This document shows positions 14,546 through 22,544 of a DNA stretch of 29,086 bases, one piece after another. The stretch is from Planctomycetota bacterium. GTDB taxonomy: Bacteria > Planctomycetota > Phycisphaerae > SM23-33. Position 1 is the stretch's first letter. Each line of letters opens with the position of its first letter. The notes beneath the pieces are model-generated. The model was not told the origin of the DNA and did not search any database. It was given only the letters and a program-made list of their open reading frames with translations. A program made the translations under genes and the position numbers. The stretch is from assembly GCA_048622595.1 (NCBI GenBank), contig JBMCUM010000001.1, positions 1 to 29,086 on the forward strand, given 5' to 3'.

Positions 14546-15121
14546 TTAGCGCGCAGGCGGCTTGCGGACCGACGCGACGAAGTAATCGACCAGCGAGGCG
14601 CCCGTGACCGCCACGACGAGACCGACCAGTCCCCCACGCAGCAGCGCCACGTCGCCCCACGCCGCCAGGGGCCCGACGGCCAGCGTGCAGGCCAGGGCGA
14701 CGGCGGCGGCGCCCTGGACAATGGCCTTGAGCTTGCCCGTGGCGCGCGCGGCGACCTTGCGCCCCCCCAGGATGCACGTGATGCGGATGTAGGCGACGGA
14801 GACGTCGCGGATCGCCAGGACGAGCAGCACCCACCAGGGGCTGACGCCCGCCGCGGCCAGGCCCGCGTAGGTCACCAGGCGCGAGATCGAGTCGCAATAC
14901 GGGTCGAGCAGCTCGCCGAAGCGGCTGGTCACCTCCCACCGCCGCGCCAGCAGCCCGTCGGTCAGGTCGCTGACCTCGACGCTCACCAGCAGCGCCACGG
15001 CCGCCCACGCCGCGACCGACGCGGCGCCCGCACCGGCCAGCAGACCCGCACCCGCGCCCGCCAGCGGGACGCGGACCACCGTCACGGCCACGACCAGCGA
15101 TCGGCGGGCGGCGCGGGTCAT
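14546..15121 (-). CDS. CDP-alcohol phosphatidyltransferase family protein (PgsA-like)
   Basis: Signature DLTDGLLARRWEVTSRFGELLDPYCD; GKLKA; several hydrophobic helices. Confidence 0.88.
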   Translation of the reverse strand: MTRAARRSLVVAVTVVRVPLAGAGAGLLAGAGAASVAAWAAVALLVSVEVSDLTDGLLARRWEVTSRFGELLDPYCDSISRLVTYAGLAAAGVSPWWVLLVLAIRDVSVAYIRITCILGGRKVAARATGKLKAIVQGAAAVALACTLAVGPLAAWGDVALLRGGLVGLVVAVTGASLVDYFVASVRKPPAR

Positions 15122-15125
15122 GGCG

Positions 15126-15431
15126 TTACTTGTCGCCCTCGATGCGCGTGATCATCAGCTCCCAGCCGTTGGCGGTCTGCGGCTCATCGGCGCCGGGGGC
15201 GGTGAGCGTCTGGCCGGGCTCGACGGTCGCCACATCGACGGCGGCGTCGGCGAACCGCCCGCTGTCGTCGGCCTCGAAGGCGTGCTCGAAGCTGTGGGCG
15301 AGGAAGTCGGCGGAGACGCCGTGCAGCGCCCCGACGGTCATCTCGATGCGGGTGACGCGCCGGAAGCCCTGGTTCTCGGCGACCTGGCGCACCTGCGGCC
15401 AGAGCTCCTTAGCCAGTCCGTGTTCGTGCAT
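15126..15431 (-). CDS. hypA: HypA/HybF-like nickel metallochaperone lacking the Zn-finger cysteines (101 aa)
   Basis: N-terminal MHE motif, VTRIEMTVGALHGVSADFLAHSFE, C-terminal G.ELMITRIE; GAGG RBS before ATG 15431; no Cys in the protein. Confidence 0.75.
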   Translation of the reverse strand: MHEHGLAKELWPQVRQVAENQGFRRVTRIEMTVGALHGVSADFLAHSFEHAFEADDSGRFADAAVDVATVEPGQTLTAPGADEPQTANGWELMITRIEGDK

Positions 15432-15450
15432 GCTTCGCCTCACTCTTCAA

Positions 15451-15648
15451 AAACAGCAGGAATTCATGGGATACAGGGGATACAGCTTGCTTTTATAGCG
15501 GGGATGAACACGCCCGGACGGGTGCCCGTATGGGCAGATCAACGCGGATGAACTATATTGTTTTCCCTCTGCGTTCATCGGCGTTCATCCCCGCTATTTT
15601 GACGAGGAGAAGTCGTTATCCCCTGCATCCCCTGCATCCCTGCTATTT
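15451..15648. repeat. Nested inverted-repeat element built from 9- and 10-bp tandem units, with no ORF of its own
   Basis: Outer IR 15451-15482 vs 15617-15648 (27/32); inner perfect 15-bp IR 15495-15509 vs 15583-15597; 9-mer ATCCCCTGC units at 15618-15643; 10-mer units at 15568-15587; hairpin at 15523-15536. Confidence 0.85.
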
Positions 15649-16133
15649 GGTTTTGTCGTCTTCGCCGAGCGCAGGACGTCCTCGACGAGTCGGACCCCCG
15701 CGGCGGTCAGGTCGTCCAGCGCGGCGGCGAGCTCGTCGCTGAGCGTCCGCCCGTAATCGACGACCTTCGGCTGGATCGCCAGCACGCGGACCTCCGCGGG
15801 ACGGTGGAAGAACCGCGCCACGAGTGTCAGCGTCTCGTTGAACGGCGCGTCGTGCATGCTGGCGCGGTGCTCGGCGGGCAGGTCGCAGAGCTGCTGCGGC
15901 GTGACGGCGCGGTGCTCGCCGGGGGCGAGCTTCATCTCGGCCGAGTCGAACACGACCAGCCGCGTCGCGTCCTCGATCACGTTGATGAGGTTCAGCCCCC
16001 CGGCGCCGCCGTCGACGAATTCGACGACCTTGGGCCAGTCGCGCGCCTGCTGCACGCGCTGGAGCACGCGCACGCCGACACCGTCGTCGCGCATCAGGAC
16101 GTTTCCGATTCCCAGGACGGTCAGGTCGCTCAT
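15594..16133 (-). CDS. [NiFe]-hydrogenase maturation protease (HyaD/HybD/HycI family)
   Basis: LGIGNVLMRDDGVG, FVDGG, VFDSA, SMHD, LAIQP; C-terminal tail encoded by the repeat element. Confidence 0.9.
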   Translation of the reverse strand: MSDLTVLGIGNVLMRDDGVGVRVLQRVQQARDWPKVVEFVDGGAGGLNLINVIEDATRLVVFDSAEMKLAPGEHRAVTPQQLCDLPAEHRASMHDAPFNETLTLVARFFHRPAEVRVLAIQPKVVDYGRTLSDELAAALDDLTAAGVRLVEDVLRSAKTTKPNSRDAGDAGDNDFSSSK

Positions 16134-16182
16134 CGGCGCTCACTGTACCGCGCGGTTCGGGCGCGCACCAGCGGCAGGTCGG

Positions 16183-16776
16183 TTACAGCGAGCCCTTGGT
16201 GGAGGGGACCTCGCCGCCGCGGTCGGGGTCGACGCCCTTGGCCTGGCGCAGCGCCTGAGCGAGCGCCTTGAAGATCGCCTCGGCGACGTGGTGGTCGTTG
16301 ACGCCGTAGGGGACGTTGACGTGGACGTTCATGCCCGCCGTGGCGGCCAGGCGGCGGATGAACTCCTCGACGAGCTGCGTGTCGAACGTTCCGATCTTGT
16401 CGCCGGCGAAGCGGACGTTGTACACGACCGCGGCGCGTCCCGACAGGTCCACCGAGACATTCGCCAGCGCCTCCTCCATGGGCACGCTGGCCGAGCCGTA
16501 GCGGGTCAGACCCGCCTTGTCGCCCAGAGCCTCGTCCAGCGCCTCGCCGAGGCAGATGGCGACGTCCTCGGCCGTGTGATGGTCGTCCACCTCCAGGTCG
16601 CCGGTCGCCTTGACGGTCAGGTCCGACAGGGAGTGCTTGGCGAGATGGTCGAGCATGTGGTCGAGGAAGCCGATGCCGGTGGCGACCTCGGACGTGCCCG
16701 ACCCGTCCAGATCCAGCGTCAGCTCGATCCGGGTCTCTTTCGTCTTGCGGGTGATTGTCGCTTTTCGGTCGTTCAT
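16183..16776 (-). CDS. hisB: Imidazoleglycerol-phosphate dehydratase
   Basis: RKTKETRI, TGIGFLDHML, DDHHTAEDVAI, NDHHVAEAIFKA; ATG 16776 (the ORF-track extension reads through repeats). Confidence 0.96.
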   Translation of the reverse strand: MNDRKATITRKTKETRIELTLDLDGSGTSEVATGIGFLDHMLDHLAKHSLSDLTVKATGDLEVDDHHTAEDVAICLGEALDEALGDKAGLTRYGSASVPMEEALANVSVDLSGRAAVVYNVRFAGDKIGTFDTQLVEEFIRRLAATAGMNVHVNVPYGVNDHHVAEAIFKALAQALRQAKGVDPDRGGEVPSTKGSL

Positions 16777-16781
16777 TTTTG

Positions 16782-16823
16782 TGTTCGACGTTTGGGGTTC
16801 GACGTTCGGGGTTCGACGTTCGA
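16782..16823. repeat. Heptamer tandem array, 6 x NGTTCGR (3' arm of cassette A)
   Basis: TGTTCGA CGTTTGG GGTTCGA CGTTCGG GGTTCGA CGTTCGA. Confidence 0.92.
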
Positions 16824-16874
16824 CGCTGCACATTAGGCAACGATGCTCAATGATCGACGCTTTGAGGTTGCCGG

Positions 16875-17291
16875 TCAACTGTTCGGGGATGTTTGTTGGG
16901 GGCAATTGCTGCCCACGCCAATCTGGCGATTGCGGCGCAGGCTCGCAACGAGACCTTTCGTCAGCCCGCGAACGCGATCACCTAGATCGTATGCTCGGCA
17001 TACATGGTCATGTTCCAGATAGCCAAGTTTCTCCGCGGCGATCAATTGCGTCTCCGTTTCGTTAAGAGACCCCAACGCCATGTCAAGAAAACGAAGAAAA
17101 TCGGCCTTGCTGGAGCGGCCATGACCTTCGGCGATGTTGCTGGCGACGCCGACCACCGCCCTTCGGACTTGGGCCCGAAGGCCGAATCGCTCGTCGGGGG
17201 GAAAGGATCGGGTCAGCTTGTAGACTTCGAGCAGCAGATCCATGGCCGCCTGCCATGCTCGCAAGTCCCGATATGACTTGATGGCGGCCAA
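16875..17291 (-). CDS. Four-helix-bundle protein (23S rRNA IVS protein family, PF05635/TIGR02436-like), copy A
   Basis: SYRDLRAWQAAM, YKLT..FPPDERFGL.AQVRRA, SNIAEGHGR, FLRFLDMALGSLNETETQL; probable TTG start at 17291 with GGGAG 7 nt upstream; ~56% GC in sampled lines. Confidence 0.92.
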   Translation of the reverse strand: MAAIKSYRDLRAWQAAMDLLLEVYKLTRSFPPDERFGLRAQVRRAVVGVASNIAEGHGRSSKADFLRFLDMALGSLNETETQLIAAEKLGYLEHDHVCRAYDLGDRVRGLTKGLVASLRRNRQIGVGSNCPQQTSPNS

Positions 17292-17368
17292 TCCGCGCTC
17301 CCCAAGATGTTCGGCGACCTTCCTGGCGCTCGTTCCGGCCTCAAACACTCCACGCCGCCCGTCACCCG

Positions 17369-17403
17369 TCGAACATCGAACGTCGAACACCGAACGTCGA
17401 ACG
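17369..17403. repeat. Heptamer tandem array, 5 x YCGAACR (5' arm of cassette A, inverted relative to 16782-16823)
   Basis: TCGAACA TCGAACG TCGAACA CCGAACG TCGAACG; begins 2 nt after the hisC stop on the minus strand. Confidence 0.92.
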
Positions 17404-17405
17404 TT

Positions 17406-18443
17406 TTACATCAGCGCCTTCAGCAGCGCGGCGTTCTGCTCGTCGGTCCCGACGGTGATCCGCAGCTTGTCGTCGAGGCGCGGGGCTTGGAAGTATCGAA
17501 CCAGAATGCCGGAATCCTTGAGCATCGCGTGGACCGCGGCGGCGTCGCCTCCGCCGGGTCGGGCCAGCACGAAGTTCGCCTGCGAGTCCCACACCCGCCA
17601 GCCCATCGCCCGCAGCCCTGCCGTCAGCTCCGCCCGGGCGGCGCGGACCCGCTCGACGTTGGCGTCCTTCCAGTCCGCGTCGCGCAGCGCCGCTGCGCCC
17701 AGGGCGGCCGGCAGGGCGCCGACGTTGTAGATCTGCTTGGTTTTGCACAGCGCCTCCAGCAGCGCCGGACGGGCGACGGCGAAGCCGACGCGCAGCCCGG
17801 CCAGCGAGTAGCCCTTCGACAGCGTCCGCAGGACGATGACGTTGTCACAGCGCTCGACCAGCCCCAGGGCGGTCTCGTCGGCGAAGTCCACGTACGCCTC
17901 GTCGACGACCAGCAGCCCCGAAAGCCGTTCGGCCAACTCGCCCAGTTGCTCCGTCGGCGCCGCCGTGCCCGACGGGCTGTTCGGGTTGGCCACGAACGTC
18001 ACGGCCGCGCCGGACTCGGCGAGCGCGTCGACGGGAAGGGCGTAGTCCTCGCCGTAGGGCACCTCCAGGGGACCGGCGGTCTCGACCTGCGCCTGGGTGC
18101 GATAGTAGGTGAACGTCGGGACGGGGCAGGCGACGAGCCGCCGGGGCGCGCACGCGGCGCGGGCGATCATCATGATCGCATCGTCGCTCCCGTTGCCCGG
18201 AAGGATCCACCCGGGCGGAACGTCCATCGCCTCGGCCGCCGCTTGGCGGAGCACACCGGCCGTGGCGTCCGGGTAGACCCGCAGCGTCTCGGCGTCGAAC
18301 GTGGCCAGGGCCTCGGCGACCCGCGGCGAGGGGGGGTACGGATTCTCGTTGGTGTTGAGCTTGATGACCTCGGCGCCGGCGGGCGGCTGGGCACCGGGGA
18401 CGTAGGCGGCCATCTGCTCGATATTGTCGCGGAAGAAAGACAT
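17406..18443 (-). CDS. hisC: Histidinol-phosphate aminotransferase
   Basis: KLNTNENPYPP, NGSDD, NPNSPSG, VVDEAY, RTLSKGYSLAGLRVG (PLP lysine). Confidence 0.95.
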   Translation of the reverse strand: MSFFRDNIEQMAAYVPGAQPPAGAEVIKLNTNENPYPPSPRVAEALATFDAETLRVYPDATAGVLRQAAAEAMDVPPGWILPGNGSDDAIMMIARAACAPRRLVACPVPTFTYYRTQAQVETAGPLEVPYGEDYALPVDALAESGAAVTFVANPNSPSGTAAPTEQLGELAERLSGLLVVDEAYVDFADETALGLVERCDNVIVLRTLSKGYSLAGLRVGFAVARPALLEALCKTKQIYNVGALPAALGAAALRDADWKDANVERVRAARAELTAGLRAMGWRVWDSQANFVLARPGGGDAAAVHAMLKDSGILVRYFQAPRLDDKLRITVGTDEQNAALLKALM

Positions 18444-18452
18444 AACGGCGGG

Positions 18453-18507
18453 TCTTAGGTCTTAGGTCTTAGTGATAGGGCTGAGGCCTGAGAACTGAGG
18501 GCTGAGG
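18453..18507. repeat. Heptamer arrays 3 x TCTTAGG and 4 x NCTGAGR (3' arm of cassette B)
   Basis: TCTTAGG TCTTAGG TCTTAGT (18453-18473); GCTGAGG CCTGAGA ACTGAGG GCTGAGG (18480-18507), abutting the four-helix-bundle stop codon. Confidence 0.92.
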
Positions 18508-18891
18508 TTACCGAGGCGGCGTTTTACCCTCGAGTTTCATAATCAGGCCCTTGACGATCCTTTGCACTTCGTCGGCAATTGTGATCAGTTTCGCTGTCTT
18601 GTCGGCACTGGCGAATCCCAGTTGTTGGGCCAAGATGATCTGGGTCTCCACTTCGCTGGCGGATGCCCTCGCAATATCGAGAAACCTTACATAGTCGTGC
18701 TTGGATCTGCGTCCATGTCCTTCGGCGATGTTGCTGGGAACACTCACCGCCGCGCGACGGACTTGCGCAGTTAGCCCGAAGCGTTCGGCGCTTGGGAAAG
18801 CCGCCGTCAGTTTATAGGTTTCACAGGCCAGCTCCATTGCCCGTGGCCAGGCTATCAGCCCTTTGAAGCCGCTGTTTTGCCCCACACTCAT
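18508..18891 (-). CDS. Four-helix-bundle protein (23S rRNA IVS protein family), copy B (127 aa)
   Basis: LIAWPRAMEL, YKLTAAFPSAERFGLTAQVRRAAVSVPSNIAEGHGR, RFLDIARAS..EVETQ; purine-rich RBS; ~53% GC in sampled lines. Confidence 0.93.
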   Translation of the reverse strand: MSVGQNSGFKGLIAWPRAMELACETYKLTAAFPSAERFGLTAQVRRAAVSVPSNIAEGHGRRSKHDYVRFLDIARASASEVETQIILAQQLGFASADKTAKLITIADEVQRIVKGLIMKLEGKTPPR

Positions 18892-18899
18892 GGACCTTT

Positions 18900-18927
18900 C
18901 CTCTGCCCTCAGCCCTCAGTCCTCCGC
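18900..18927. repeat. Heptamer array, 4 x CCTCNGY (5' arm of cassette B), overlapping the hisD stop
   Basis: CCTCTGC CCTCAGC CCTCAGT CCTCCGC; the hisD TGA is at 18909-18911. Confidence 0.88.
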
Positions 18928-20246
18928 TCGACCGCCGCGGCGTGGGCGGTCAGCCCCTCCCGGCGGGCGAAGTCGGCCACGTCCGCCGCGTCGGCGGCCA
19001 GAGCGTCGGCGTCGTAGCGGACCACGCTGGAGGCCTTGAGGAAGTCGTTGCAGCTCAGCGGACCGGAGAACCGCGCCGTCGTGCCCGTGGGAAGCACGTG
19101 CGACGGTCCCGCGTAGTAATCGCCCACCGGAACGGGCGTGTGGGCGCCGACGAAGATCGCCCCGGCGTTGCGGATTCTCGCCAGGGCGCCCTCGTCGTCG
19201 GCCGTGATGATCTGAAGGTGCTCCGGGGCGAAGGCGTTGGCGACGTCCGCCGCGGCGTCCAGGTCGGGCGCGACGATGACGACCGAGTACTTGTCGATGC
19301 CGTGGCGTGCGGCGTCGGCCCGACCCAGTGCGTCGAGCTGCCTGTCGATCTCGGCGGCGACGGCGCCGGCCAGTCCGGGCGAGGTCGTCACCAGCACGGC
19401 CGATCCGGGGTCGTGTTCCGTCTGGGCGAGCATGTCGACGGCGACCCAGGCCGGCTCGGCGGTCTCGTCGGCGACGATGAGCACCTCGCTGGGCCCGGCG
19501 ATGGCGTCAATGCCGACGCGTCCGAACAACTGGCGTTTGGCCTCGGCGATATAGGCGTTGCCCGGCCCGACGATCTTGTCCACCCGGGGGATGTCGTCGG
19601 TGCCCACCGCCGCGGCCGCCAAGCCCGCAACGCCGCTGACGCGATACACCGTCCGCACGCCCAGCAGCTCGGCCACCGCCGCGATCATCGGATGCACCGA
19701 GCCGGCGTGCGTCGGCGGGGAGATCATCACGACCTCGCCCACGCCGGCGACCTGCGCGGGAATCACCGTCATCAGCACGGAGGACGGATAGACCGCCCGC
19801 CCGCCGGGCACGTAGACGGCCGCGCGATCGACCGGCGTGTAGCGCACGGCCAGTTTCCGCCCGTCGCGGGACAGCTCCGGCGGGTCGGCGATGCGGATGT
19901 GCTCCTGGTACGCGCGGATGTTGGCGGTCGCCCGCTCGATCAGCCCGATGAACCGCCCGTCGCGCTTGCGGAAGTCGTCCAGGGCGCCCGCCATCTCGTC
20001 GCCCGGTACGCGAATCCCGTCCGGCGTGAGCGTCACGTCGTGCAGGCGCGCGGTCTGCTCGATGACGGCGTCCGTTCCGTCCCGCTCGACGGCCTCGATC
20101 GCCTCGGCCACCGTCTGACGCACCGCGGCGCGGTCGCGGCGCTGTGCGCCCGAGGCGGTCAGGTTCCCTTCGGTCAGCCGCTCGATGGCGCGAAGCACGC
20201 GCGCATCCTCCAGCGGTCTGTCGGACTGGATGATCTCGACGGGCAT
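18909..20246 (-). CDS. hisD: Histidinol dehydrogenase (~445 aa)
   Basis: YVPGG, GPGNAYIAEAK, IAGPSEV, AQTEH, APEHL, GDYYAGPSHVLPT; start MPVEII at 20246. Confidence 0.96.
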   Translation of the reverse strand: MPVEIIQSDRPLEDARVLRAIERLTEGNLTASGAQRRDRAAVRQTVAEAIEAVERDGTDAVIEQTARLHDVTLTPDGIRVPGDEMAGALDDFRKRDGRFIGLIERATANIRAYQEHIRIADPPELSRDGRKLAVRYTPVDRAAVYVPGGRAVYPSSVLMTVIPAQVAGVGEVVMISPPTHAGSVHPMIAAVAELLGVRTVYRVSGVAGLAAAAVGTDDIPRVDKIVGPGNAYIAEAKRQLFGRVGIDAIAGPSEVLIVADETAEPAWVAVDMLAQTEHDPGSAVLVTTSPGLAGAVAAEIDRQLDALGRADAARHGIDKYSVVIVAPDLDAAADVANAFAPEHLQIITADDEGALARIRNAGAIFVGAHTPVPVGDYYAGPSHVLPTGTTARFSGPLSCNDFLKASSVVRYDADALAADAADVADFARREGLTAHAAAVERRTEG

Positions 20247-20255
20247 GGCGAGCGT

Positions 20256-20284
20256 ACTGTAGGCGCGGGCGGGCGCTTTTGCAA
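20256..20284 (-). promoter_or_regulatory. sigma70-like promoter of the his run
   Basis: TTGCAA-N17-TACAGT, then 9 nt to the hisD ATG; no SD. Confidence 0.6.
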
Positions 20285-20305
20285 CGCCGGCGGGCGCGGC
20301 GGGCA

Positions 20306-20334
20306 TTGCGGCGCCGCCCTCGAGGGGGCATAAT
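20306..20334 (+). promoter_or_regulatory. sigma70-like promoter, divergent from hisD
   Basis: TTGCGG-N17-CATAAT. Confidence 0.45.
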
Positions 20335-20450
20335 GCAGGCGGGCACCCCGCCGAGATCGCACGGGAACTTCGCCGCGCGTGGCGCATCGAACAGGAAACG
20401 CGCCACGACGTGCCTCCGCGAGGGCGCCGGGCAGCGCGGGAGGACGGTCG

Positions 20451-22544
20451 ATGAAGCGTGCCAGCCAATGTGGACGAATGACGCGCCTTGCGGCGGGGCT
20501 CCTTGCGCCGCTGCTCGGCGCGGCGACGCTGTTGGGGCTCGCGGCGGGACCGGCCCGCGGCGAGAAGCCCATCGCAGTCCTGGGGCTCGTCCGCGCCGCC
20601 GGACGGGTGACCCCGGCCGCGGGCGGCGAGACCGTCAAGGGCCTGCACCTGTCCCCCCAGCGCCGCGTGGGCCTGGCGCACGTCCTGACCGACGGCGCGG
20701 GCTTCCGCTGGGACATCCAGCAGTACGGAACCGTCGGAAACGGGACGAACAACGCCTACGGGCACGGGATGTTCTGCCAAATCAGCGGCAACACCGTCCG
20801 CGCCTCGGACGGACAGGCGCGCCTCAGCGCCGACGGCCGCGAGATCGAGATCGGCCCGCACCAGGACAACACCGGGCTCCGCGTCTATCGGCGGGTCCGC
20901 GTCTACGAGGACCGGGCGCTGGCCCGCTGGCTGGACATCTTCGAGAACCCCACGGGCAAGCCGATACGGGTTCCCGTCGAGATTCGCAGCAACATCCCGT
21001 ACGGGATCGGCAAACGCGTGGGCAGCGAAGGCCGCGCCGTGGACCGCGACGCTTGGGCGTTCATGACCGAAAGCGGTCGTCCCGAACGCTCCCCGGCGCT
21101 TCTGCACGTGGTCCGTGGGGAGCACTCGAAGCTCAAACCGCAGATCACGTTCCGGGGCAACAGCATCCACGTACAGTGGCAGCTCGAGATCCCGGCGCGG
21201 TCCAGCGTCGTGCTGTGCACGTTCCAGTCGCAGGACCACAAGCTGAACGCCCACCGCCGCCGGTTGCGCGGCTTCCGCGTCAGCGACCTGCTCCGCGACC
21301 TGCCGGCGGCGGCGCGGCGGCGCATCGTCAACTTCCGCGTGGGCACGTTCGTCGCCGACGTCTCGCTGGACCGGTCGGAGCGGGCCGACGTTCTGGTCAC
21401 CGCCGACGGCGACCCCATGCACGGGCAGGTGCTCAACGAAGCGTTCACGCTGTCGACGTTTTTCGGCTCGATGAAGCTGCCGGCCGACCGCGTGATCGGC
21501 ATGGCGGTCGCCGAGGACGGCGTCCGGGTGCTGACGACCGACGGGCAGGTGGTCTCGGGGACGCTGGCGGACCAGCCGATCCGCATCGACCTGCCGGACG
21601 GGCGGGGCGAGCTGGCGCTGCCCGTCGCGAAGATCTCCCAGTGGTCCTACCGCATCAGCGAGGACCGCCCGTTGGAGATTCCGTTTTCCGGCCCTGCGGT
21701 GGAACTGCGCAGCGGGGACCGCCTGGCGTTCGCCGCCGAGGCGACGGCGCTTTCGCTGCGGACGCGGCACGGGACGGTCGCCCTGGACGCCGCCGCGATG
21801 CACGAGGTTCGCCTGGACAACGAGGACAACGGCGTGCACCGGGCGGTCTTCGTCAGCGGCAGCGAGCTGGCGGGCTTCCTCGAGCCGGATGACTTGACGT
21901 TCGAGCTGAAGCTGGGTCCGCAGTTGTCCGTGTCGCGCGACATGCTGGTGCGGGTTCTGTTCGACCCCGACGTGCGGGACGACCCGACGCTGACCCGCGT
22001 GACGCTGACCAACGGTGACGAGATCCGCGGGCGACTCGAAGACGCGCCGCTGCTCGTGGACACCGGGTACGGTTCCGTGAAGCTCGATCCCCGCGACGTG
22101 CGGATCCTGGCGCTGGAGCCCGATCAGCCCGGCCGGGCCGTGGTTCAGCTCTTCGATGAGTCCGTTCTCCGCGGCGAACTGACCAACGAGACCCTGGGCG
22201 TCAAGATGCTGCCCGGTCCCGAGCTGCGCATACAGACCGTGCTGGTCCGCGGAGTGACGCGCAGCCAGCCCATGTCGCCCGAGGAGATTCGCACCCGCGC
22301 CCGCGACTTGGTGGTGCGCCTCGGCGCCGAGAGCTACGCCGACCGCGAGGCCGCCACGAAGGAGCTGGTCGAGCTCGGGGCGGTGATCCTGCCGATGGTG
22401 CGCTCGTATCTGGACGTCAATGACCCGGAGGTCCGCCAGCGCCTCGAGCGGGTCGTCGAGCAGATCACAGGCGGTCAGAGCCCGGACGCCGCGGCGCCGG
22501 CGCCCGGCGCGCTCCGCACGCTGCTCGAGCGGGGCGGACGTTGA
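20451..22544 (+). CDS. Secreted multi-domain protein with tandem beta-rich repeats and a C-terminal HEAT-like helical domain (~697 aa)
   Basis: RBS GGGAGGA; signal peptide; GFRWDI..GTNNAY domain; three repeats of (xLxxGDx.xG...xTxYGxxxL); C-terminal LVVRLGAESYADREAATKEL..DPEVRQRL. Confidence 0.8.
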   Translation: MKRASQCGRMTRLAAGLLAPLLGAATLLGLAAGPARGEKPIAVLGLVRAAGRVTPAAGGETVKGLHLSPQRRVGLAHVLTDGAGFRWDIQQYGTVGNGTNNAYGHGMFCQISGNTVRASDGQARLSADGREIEIGPHQDNTGLRVYRRVRVYEDRALARWLDIFENPTGKPIRVPVEIRSNIPYGIGKRVGSEGRAVDRDAWAFMTESGRPERSPALLHVVRGEHSKLKPQITFRGNSIHVQWQLEIPARSSVVLCTFQSQDHKLNAHRRRLRGFRVSDLLRDLPAAARRRIVNFRVGTFVADVSLDRSERADVLVTADGDPMHGQVLNEAFTLSTFFGSMKLPADRVIGMAVAEDGVRVLTTDGQVVSGTLADQPIRIDLPDGRGELALPVAKISQWSYRISEDRPLEIPFSGPAVELRSGDRLAFAAEATALSLRTRHGTVALDAAAMHEVRLDNEDNGVHRAVFVSGSELAGFLEPDDLTFELKLGPQLSVSRDMLVRVLFDPDVRDDPTLTRVTLTNGDEIRGRLEDAPLLVDTGYGSVKLDPRDVRILALEPDQPGRAVVQLFDESVLRGELTNETLGVKMLPGPELRIQTVLVRGVTRSQPMSPEEIRTRARDLVVRLGAESYADREAATKELVELGAVILPMVRSYLDVNDPEVRQRLERVVEQITGGQSPDAAAPAPGALRTLLERGGR

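Follow-up and report, generated by a model that had tools for sequence, protein, structure and literature searches.

A 0.6-kb cassette between hisC and hisB in a Planctomycetota genome adds a new locus to a class of IVS-like cassettes that live at operon junctions. This insert (cassette A) consists of a PF05635 gene with its own putative SD motif, enclosed in inverted arrays of a heptamer private to this copy, and its insertion site would be an originally overlapping, translationally coupled hisC-hisB junction. The reading that we prefer, with a probability of roughly 60%, is that an IVS-type cassette has entered a formerly coupled junction, where RNase III processing may be followed by an independent, SD-less start of hisB. 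By this reading, an imperfect stem of 45 to 60 bp would form in the his mRNA and would be cut by RNase III, as in the ORF-bearing IVSs of 23S rRNA, freeing the cassette RNA; hisB would then initiate independently on a 20-nt leader that is unstructured, very A-rich, and SD-less. Because the insert is a hairpin whose two ends lie within a few nucleotides of the flanking codons, the hisC stop and the hisB start, folding of the polycistronic RNA would bring the two genes side by side. This juxtaposition is a generic by-product of the cassette class, not a device specific to hisB, and is probably a condition under which such cassettes are tolerated.

Structure and gene content of cassette A

The 29,086-nt stretch of DNA analyzed here (the window) belongs to a 1.9-Mb MAG (64% complete, 70% GC) from a microbial-mat metagenome. 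Genes on the minus strand are ordered hisD, cassette B, hisC, cassette A, hisB, a HycI-type protease gene, and hypA, with hisD corresponding to the C-terminal 410 aa of an ORF at 18909-21839. hisC (17406-18443, minus strand; stop codon UAA at 17408-17406) encodes histidinol-phosphate aminotransferase (TIGR01141, 301.9 bits, and PF00155). hisB (16183-16776, minus strand; AUG at 16776-16774) encodes imidazoleglycerol-phosphate dehydratase (PF00475 and NF002109). The minus-strand spacer between them is 629 nt long, and the GC content of cassettes A and B is 52 to 62%, versus 69 to 75% for the flanking genes. Cassette A lies between hisC and hisB and not within a 23S rRNA gene at helix 25 or 45; no rRNA match was detected at positions 15000 to 19500. 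No Rfam family scored above threshold for the cassette. The sole subthreshold match, to the Glutamine-II riboswitch within hisC (18071-18118, minus strand; 19.5 bits versus a gathering score of 33; E = 0.15), is probably due to chance. An intrinsic terminator was not found on the minus strand, and since no U-tract follows 3' of the stem, read-through to hisB is expected.

As had been noticed from the sequence alone, the arms of cassette A lie close to the codons that flank it. The mRNA 5' arm (17360-17403, minus strand) begins 2 nt past the hisC UAA: after AA come five tandem CGUUCGA-type heptamers (17403-17369) and a 9-nt inner extension. The mRNA 3' arm (16782-16846, minus strand) contains six CGAACNN-type heptamers (16825-16783) with an inner extension to 16846 that is paired in the MFE fold, and it stops 5 to 6 nt short of the hisB AUG (arm end at 16782/16783). 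An inverted-repeat search recovered arms of 43 nt at 16783-16825 and 17360-17402 that are 84% complementary, with core arms of 27 nt (16797-16823 and 17376-17402) at 96%; 534 to 552 nt separate the arms of the 43-nt and core repeats. These are the top two inverted repeats in the entire window. The motif GTTCGAC occurs 16 times against 6.0 ± 2.4 expected (2.7-fold), with 7 of the 16 copies in the arms, and period-7 self-identity of the two arms is 0.79 and 0.66.

The 651-nt RNA folds at -279.9 kcal/mol, compared with -243.5 ± 7.0 kcal/mol for shuffled sequences (z = -5.2), and the outer stem is retained in the centroid structure. The terminal inverted repeats of cassette A are thus predicted to form a long enclosing stem, as in IVSs, and this stem would place the hisC stop and the hisB start at the base of one helix, in agreement with the earlier note. 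Together, these data confirm that the hairpin-type structure of cassette A is real and nonrandom.

Two pairing registers had been named, with 26 of 28 and 30 of 35 positions paired, and both are present (i + j = 34199 and 34185, respectively). An ungapped scan revealed further registers at i + j = 34192, 34206, and 34178, that is, one per 7 nt and five in all. Multiple registers arise here because both arms are tandem arrays; they are a by-product, and no two of them are special. The MFE structure (-290.8 kcal/mol) is register 34199, extended inward to 76 long-range pairs, whereas forcing register 34185 yielded -288.3 kcal/mol, 2.5 kcal/mol worse than the best fold and about 2% of the ensemble. 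The latter register was said to leave only 7 unpaired nt between stop and start; the register exists, but its outermost pair is a C.A mismatch, leaving about 9 nt unpaired. The dominant register places 20 nt, predicted to be mostly unpaired, between the stem and the hisB AUG. Accordingly, the stop-to-start gap of 629 nt in the linear sequence is predicted to shrink on folding to ∼22 nt in the dominant and ∼9 nt in the minor register. The hisB AUG itself is predicted to be unpaired in both.

Sliding between two registers 14 nt apart might toggle hisB expression in the manner of a riboswitch, as the earlier note proposed, and at 2.5 kcal/mol apart the two are nearly isoenergetic. However, registers occur at every 7-nt step, an outcome common to all paired tandem arrays; the juxtaposing register is minor, and the AUG is free in either one. 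Neither a ligand- or protein-binding element nor an Rfam match accompanies the arms. Even the species of one genus differ in arm sequence, unit number, and spacer, and we did not find two mutually exclusive structures conserved in relatives. Given the 7-nt spacing of the registers and this lack of conservation, a register switch was rejected and is highly improbable. Variation in arm unit number between strains was not seen; the sole other contig carrying this hisB is 100% identical.

The loop holds the four-helix-bundle gene recognized earlier, which proved to be a PF05635 ORF (E = 1.5e-33). This gene, ivpA (16875-17291, minus strand; maximal ORF to 17390), belongs to the PF05635 23S_rRNA_IVP family (115.7 bits, cutoff 33.8) and to TIGR02436 (110.3 bits, cutoff 24). 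Its alignment has the family motifs intact, with the core FGL..Q.RRA..S..SNIAEG.GR present. By alignment, translation likely starts at TTG 17291, yielding a protein of ∼138 aa, 6 nt downstream of a putative SD-like motif, GGGGAG (17298-17303, minus strand); the public gene call from ATG 17243 removes the conserved YRDLxAWQ motif. The stem of the MFE fold extends inward beyond the arrays (17299-17335 with 16852-16889), and in this fold the ivpA SD pairs with 16883-16889, near the gene's own stop codon.

Other kinds of element were considered for the cassette. IvpA resembles Avd, the accessory protein of diversity-generating retroelements, in the distant homology of a four-helix-bundle protein, but its score against the Avd equivalog NF033474 (23.7 bits, E = 4e-5) is far below the cutoff of 80. 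Because of this score, and because no reverse transcriptase match (RVT_1) was found in the MAG (64% complete), a diversity-generating retroelement was ruled out. A transposon or MITE was likewise rejected: neither a transposase nor a target-site duplication was found for the cassette, whose sole ORF is the PF05635 gene, the four complete copies in the genome are not consistently flanked by a direct repeat, and no two genome copies share arms.

The cassette class and the hisC/hisB junction in relatives

The MAG contains five PF05635 genes, four of which have inverted heptamer arms, each built from a different heptamer: CGTTCGA in cassette A, CTGAGGN in cassette B, GGATTGC in a copy between the V-ATPase B and D genes, and a CGAAAAT-type unit in a copy after an RnfB-like gene. 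In the V-ATPase and RnfB-like copies, the arms span the interval from the stop codon to 1 to 8 nt before the next ATG. Cassette B occupies the space between hisD and hisC (18444-18927, minus strand), with a PF05635 ORF at 18508-18891 and arms at 18477-18507 and 18900-18927. Its gene has a good SD (GAGGAAAGG), its arms consist of CUGAGGN-type heptamers, and an extra, unpaired array of three GGTCTTA units (18453-18473) lies directly 5' of the hisC AUG, another start without an SD. The fifth copy (L003, G000 contig C58, 1480-2061) abuts or overlaps the 3' part of an N6-adenine methylase-like ORF. TCTCAAA-type heptamers follow this gene and a 5' arm was not found, the contig ending there; arms were also not found in the scan for its close relatives L053 and L054.

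Across 24 Phycisphaerae relatives and the window's own genome, inverted heptamer arms were present at about 22 of the 33 PF05635 copies examined. A scan of species-representative genomes using an 8-sequence alignment detected at least 599 relatives, with the best matches in Phycisphaerae and Planctomycetota MAGs, in keeping with the microbial-mat origin of the window. Among the 75 best loci with enough flank, 63 had an arm score of at least 15, nearly all with period 7 and from at least 12 phyla; this threshold is descriptive only, because the null (flanks paired across loci) is inflated by similar G-rich heptamers among cassettes, and the fraction applies to the closest subfamily only. More than half of these armed cassettes (38 of 63) are co-directional with both neighbors. 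The distance from the upstream stop to the 5' arm has a median of 0 nt (interquartile range [IQR], -8 to +6.5; n = 51), and that from the 3' arm to the downstream start a median of 13.5 nt (IQR, 4 to 35; n = 42). Since the arms abut stop and start across the class, stop/start juxtaposition is a property of the class. Cassette A has the features of this class, namely, a PF05635 gene between inverted period-7 arrays, a private heptamer, and co-directional neighbors. Our literature search found no paper describing heptamer-armed PF05635 cassettes. Two copies about 3.3 kb apart on one contig (L039 and L061, G004 contig C18) encode sister proteins (support 100/99) with AGCCAAT-type and GTGACAA-type arms, respectively; therefore, arms diverge faster than the gene or are remade.

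We surveyed the hisC/hisB junction in 29 relatives whose locus includes both genes. Where the junction is free of cassettes, hisC and hisB overlap by ATGA or GTGA in seven relatives and are separated by a 1- to 2-nt spacer in two, and most of these nine have GGAG, AAGGA, or GAGGAG within the last 15 nt of hisC. Judged by these sequence features, the cassette-free junction has the hallmarks of classical translational coupling. How hisB is now initiated is a real question because cassette-free relatives have this coupled junction.

Five of the 29 relatives (G001, G002, G008, G018, and G024) carry a PF05635 cassette at hisC/hisB with other heptamers, and a sixth, G027, has a heptamer hairpin without a gene at the same site. 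Unrelated inserts also occur at hisC/hisB: one of 1,028 nt (L012, in G013) starts with repeated nested hairpins, and one of 435 nt (L013, in G010) has no PF05635 match. In the genus of the window's organism, all three species have cassettes at both hisD/hisC and hisC/hisB. The same-genus cassette proteins are 47 to 52% identical to IvpA, and the HisB proteins are 82 to 87% identical. Neither arm sequence nor unit number nor spacer is conserved among these three species or the other four occupied junctions. In the tree, the cassettes of his operons all fall in one Phycisphaerae clade (100/82) and are not grouped by junction.

Decay and replacement are visible at individual junctions. In G001, the hisC/hisB ORF (L009, 1038-1411) has a frameshift near residue 40 and the hisD/hisC ORF (L046) an in-frame TAG; despite the decayed ORFs, the arms of these copies are intact, those at hisC/hisB with more than 20 consecutive pairs. 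The 3' array of the same cassette, ∼70 nt 5' of hisB, is composite: the 5' arm pairs with inner units of CTTCGAC type, and outer units (CCCCGAACGTCGAACAC) are identical to arm units of the window and have no 5' partner, suggesting that an older cassette was replaced by, or took in, a later one. The 5' arm of the G002 cassette lies within the last hisC codons, and in G008, the hisC UAG stop pairs with CUA immediately before the hisB AUG. Rather than a conserved regulatory structure, this junction is a hot spot where inserts turn over.

Initiation of hisB and the role of the arms

The earlier note observed that hisB lacks an SD, and indeed the 24 nt 5' of its AUG contain no GGAG, GAGG, or AGGA. 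The idea that a missing SD implies a special mechanism did not survive comparison with the rest of the genome: 73% of 466 well-defined starts have no SD core, and SD-less starts are therefore usual in this organism. SD cores are present at the other 27%, versus 13% in the control, with a positional peak at -13 to -10. The hisB leader (16777-16796, minus strand) is A-rich, and in the dominant register most of it is predicted to be unpaired. At positions -12 to -1 (16777-16788) it is 58% A, the highest of the 466 starts (mean, 20%) in this genome of 70% GC. By composition and predicted fold, the leader looks like an SD-independent, unstructured initiation region, and its A-richness was possibly selected once coupling had gone. 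The simpler reading is that hisB initiates independently and without an SD, and its A-rich start is compatible with the way in which genes of this organism ordinarily initiate. The hisB of G018, which lies behind an unrelated cassette, has an A-rich spacer too (AAAACAACAAA). As a feature of the class, however, A-rich spacers were rejected, the ratio of 1.31 (p = 0.07) being like that of ordinary starts.

Alternatively, the ancestral coupling could be kept across the 0.6-kb insert. If the stem is left uncut or its stubs stay paired, ribosomes ending at the hisC UAA would melt the first turns of the helix and reinitiate on the hisB AUG, which lies at the same end of the helix but on its opposite strand. 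Several observations fit such coupling in three dimensions: the ancestral junction is an ATGA/GTGA overlap, mostly with an SD motif in hisC; the arms abut stop and start class-wide, to the point that the G008 stop codon itself is paired; and an SD core precedes only 5 of 40 genes 3' of cassettes, compared with 26 of 63 cassette genes overall (16 of 26 in this lineage). The near absence of SDs behind cassettes would also fit dependence on upstream termination, and SD cores show a weak excess at the ends of upstream genes (12/36 versus 5/36 in the control). These class-wide counts are compatible with coupling without demanding it. Against it, the juxtaposing register makes up only ∼2% of the ensemble, and the dominant one leaves hisB with a free 20-nt leader whose exceptional A-richness looks like compensation for lost coupling. 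Moreover, SD-less starts are the norm in the genome, and tight flanks are expected for any insert into a spacer of 0 to 2 nt. The hisC 3' end also lacks an SD core, its GAAGG lying ∼20 nt from the AUG through the stem base; a split ribosome binding site, in which an SD at the end of hisC is brought to the hisB AUG, was rejected on these grounds. On balance, we consider coupling across the stem unlikely.

More doubtful again is a version in which the stubs act as an RNA splint that joins the hisC 3' end to the hisB 5' end, with reinitiation across the helix end whether or not the loop is cut. If true, a selfish insert of 0.6 kb would be invisible to operon translation, an mRNA counterpart of 23S rRNA that is fragmented but functional, and this would explain why, in many phyla, coupled stop/start junctions are precisely where the class occurs.

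A different alternative places the role of the arms at the level of DNA, where they would form hairpin or cruciform ends with which the cassette is inserted, copied, or recombined, the RNA stem being incidental. The pattern of mismatches is consistent with this idea. In 89 stems, sense-strand G.U mismatches number 69 versus 89 A.C (p = 0.13), and with flanks included the counts are 247 and 245; because G.U is not in excess over A.C, selection on a sense-RNA stem is not detectable. Each copy has a private heptamer and yet complementary arms, as fits one arm having been templated from the other. A gene-less hairpin (G027) and decayed ORFs with intact arms (G001) persist, and the composite 3' array of G001 suggests serial replacement at one site. 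Other evidence speaks against a role in DNA alone. Polarity is strong: in 75 of 85 cassettes, the sense strand of the arm 5' of the PF05635 gene is G-rich (p = 2e-13). The sense orientation within operons is preferred (38/63 co-directional with both neighbors). No recombinase or transposase is associated with the cassettes, and the stem of the published rRNA element functions as RNA (PMC4990558). Thus, the wobble test and the polarity test point in opposite directions, and we consider an exclusively DNA-level role rather unlikely. In 36 of 89 cassettes (L001-L143), the 5' arm has stop codons in every frame, as must happen once three units of period 7 are in place.

The preferred reading, RNase III cleavage followed by independent initiation of hisB, would call on an enzyme whose gene, rnc, was found in 19 of 20 relatives, both same-genus genomes among them; a search of the 64%-complete MAG of the window did not find it. 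The lack of a G.U excess in the stems, which an RNA duplex under selection should show, also counts against this reading. The states found at this one junction form a natural series, from ATGA-coupled genes through an intact cassette and cassettes with decayed ORFs to a gene-less hairpin. This series makes testable how an operon functions after a gene-sized insertion, whether the stem acts as RNA (by way of RNase III or of ribosome reinitiation) or as DNA, and what the PF05635 protein does.

Comparison with known systems

Long-range pairing or unmasking couples translation in the coat-replicase system of RNA phage MS2 and in the split ribosome binding site of phage T4 gene 38. In these systems, as proposed here, secondary structure sets the proximity or accessibility of a downstream start to ribosomes of the upstream cistron. 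The phage structures are tens of nucleotides long and demonstrated experimentally, whereas cassette A has a gene-bearing loop of 0.55 kb between its arms and is a predicted fold.

Intergenic heptamer arrays have been described in several bacteria. They include GGGAATC arrays in Xanthomonas and Nostoc, with 70 convergent pairs in Xcc (Rehm et al. 2015, PMC4692102), TAACTGA arrays that replace the SD and give stops in all frames in Beggiatoaceae (MacGregor 2015, PMC4679880), and GGGACCG and MTYCTGA arrays in Geobacter metallireducens (PMC2700814). These arrays share with ours a period of 7, a location between co-directional ORFs, less than ∼50 nt from stops or starts, and often an arrangement in convergent pairs; in the passages searched, the papers name no enclosed gene and do not link the arrays to PF05635. 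Unlike those arrays, the ones described here are the arms of a gene cassette, with a private heptamer for each copy. The IVSs of rRNA and the excess of tandem heptamer repeats in bacteria are both old, unexplained observations, and this locus ties both to one protein family.

The closest likeness is to the ORF-bearing IVSs of 23S rRNA in Coxiella burnetii, Leptospira, Brucella, and Xanthomonas, whose S23p protein belongs to the same family, PF05635 (PMC4990558). The Coxiella IVS has an S23p ORF that is decaying, a 28-bp stem cut in the middle by RNase III, and GACAGAT heptamers that vary in number between strains (Warrier et al. 2016, PMC4990558). Common to both are an insert of ∼0.4 to 0.6 kb, inverted repeats forming a stem of ∼28 to 45 bp, tandem heptamers in the ORF-adjacent arm, and an ORF that can decay while the stem stays. 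RNase III processing is documented for the rRNA elements, whereas cassette A is known from its sequence and predicted fold. The two also differ in that the host of cassette A is the mRNA of an amino acid biosynthesis operon rather than helix 25 or 45 of 23S rRNA, that its arms are almost wholly heptamer arrays, and that it is inserted exactly between a stop codon and a start codon.
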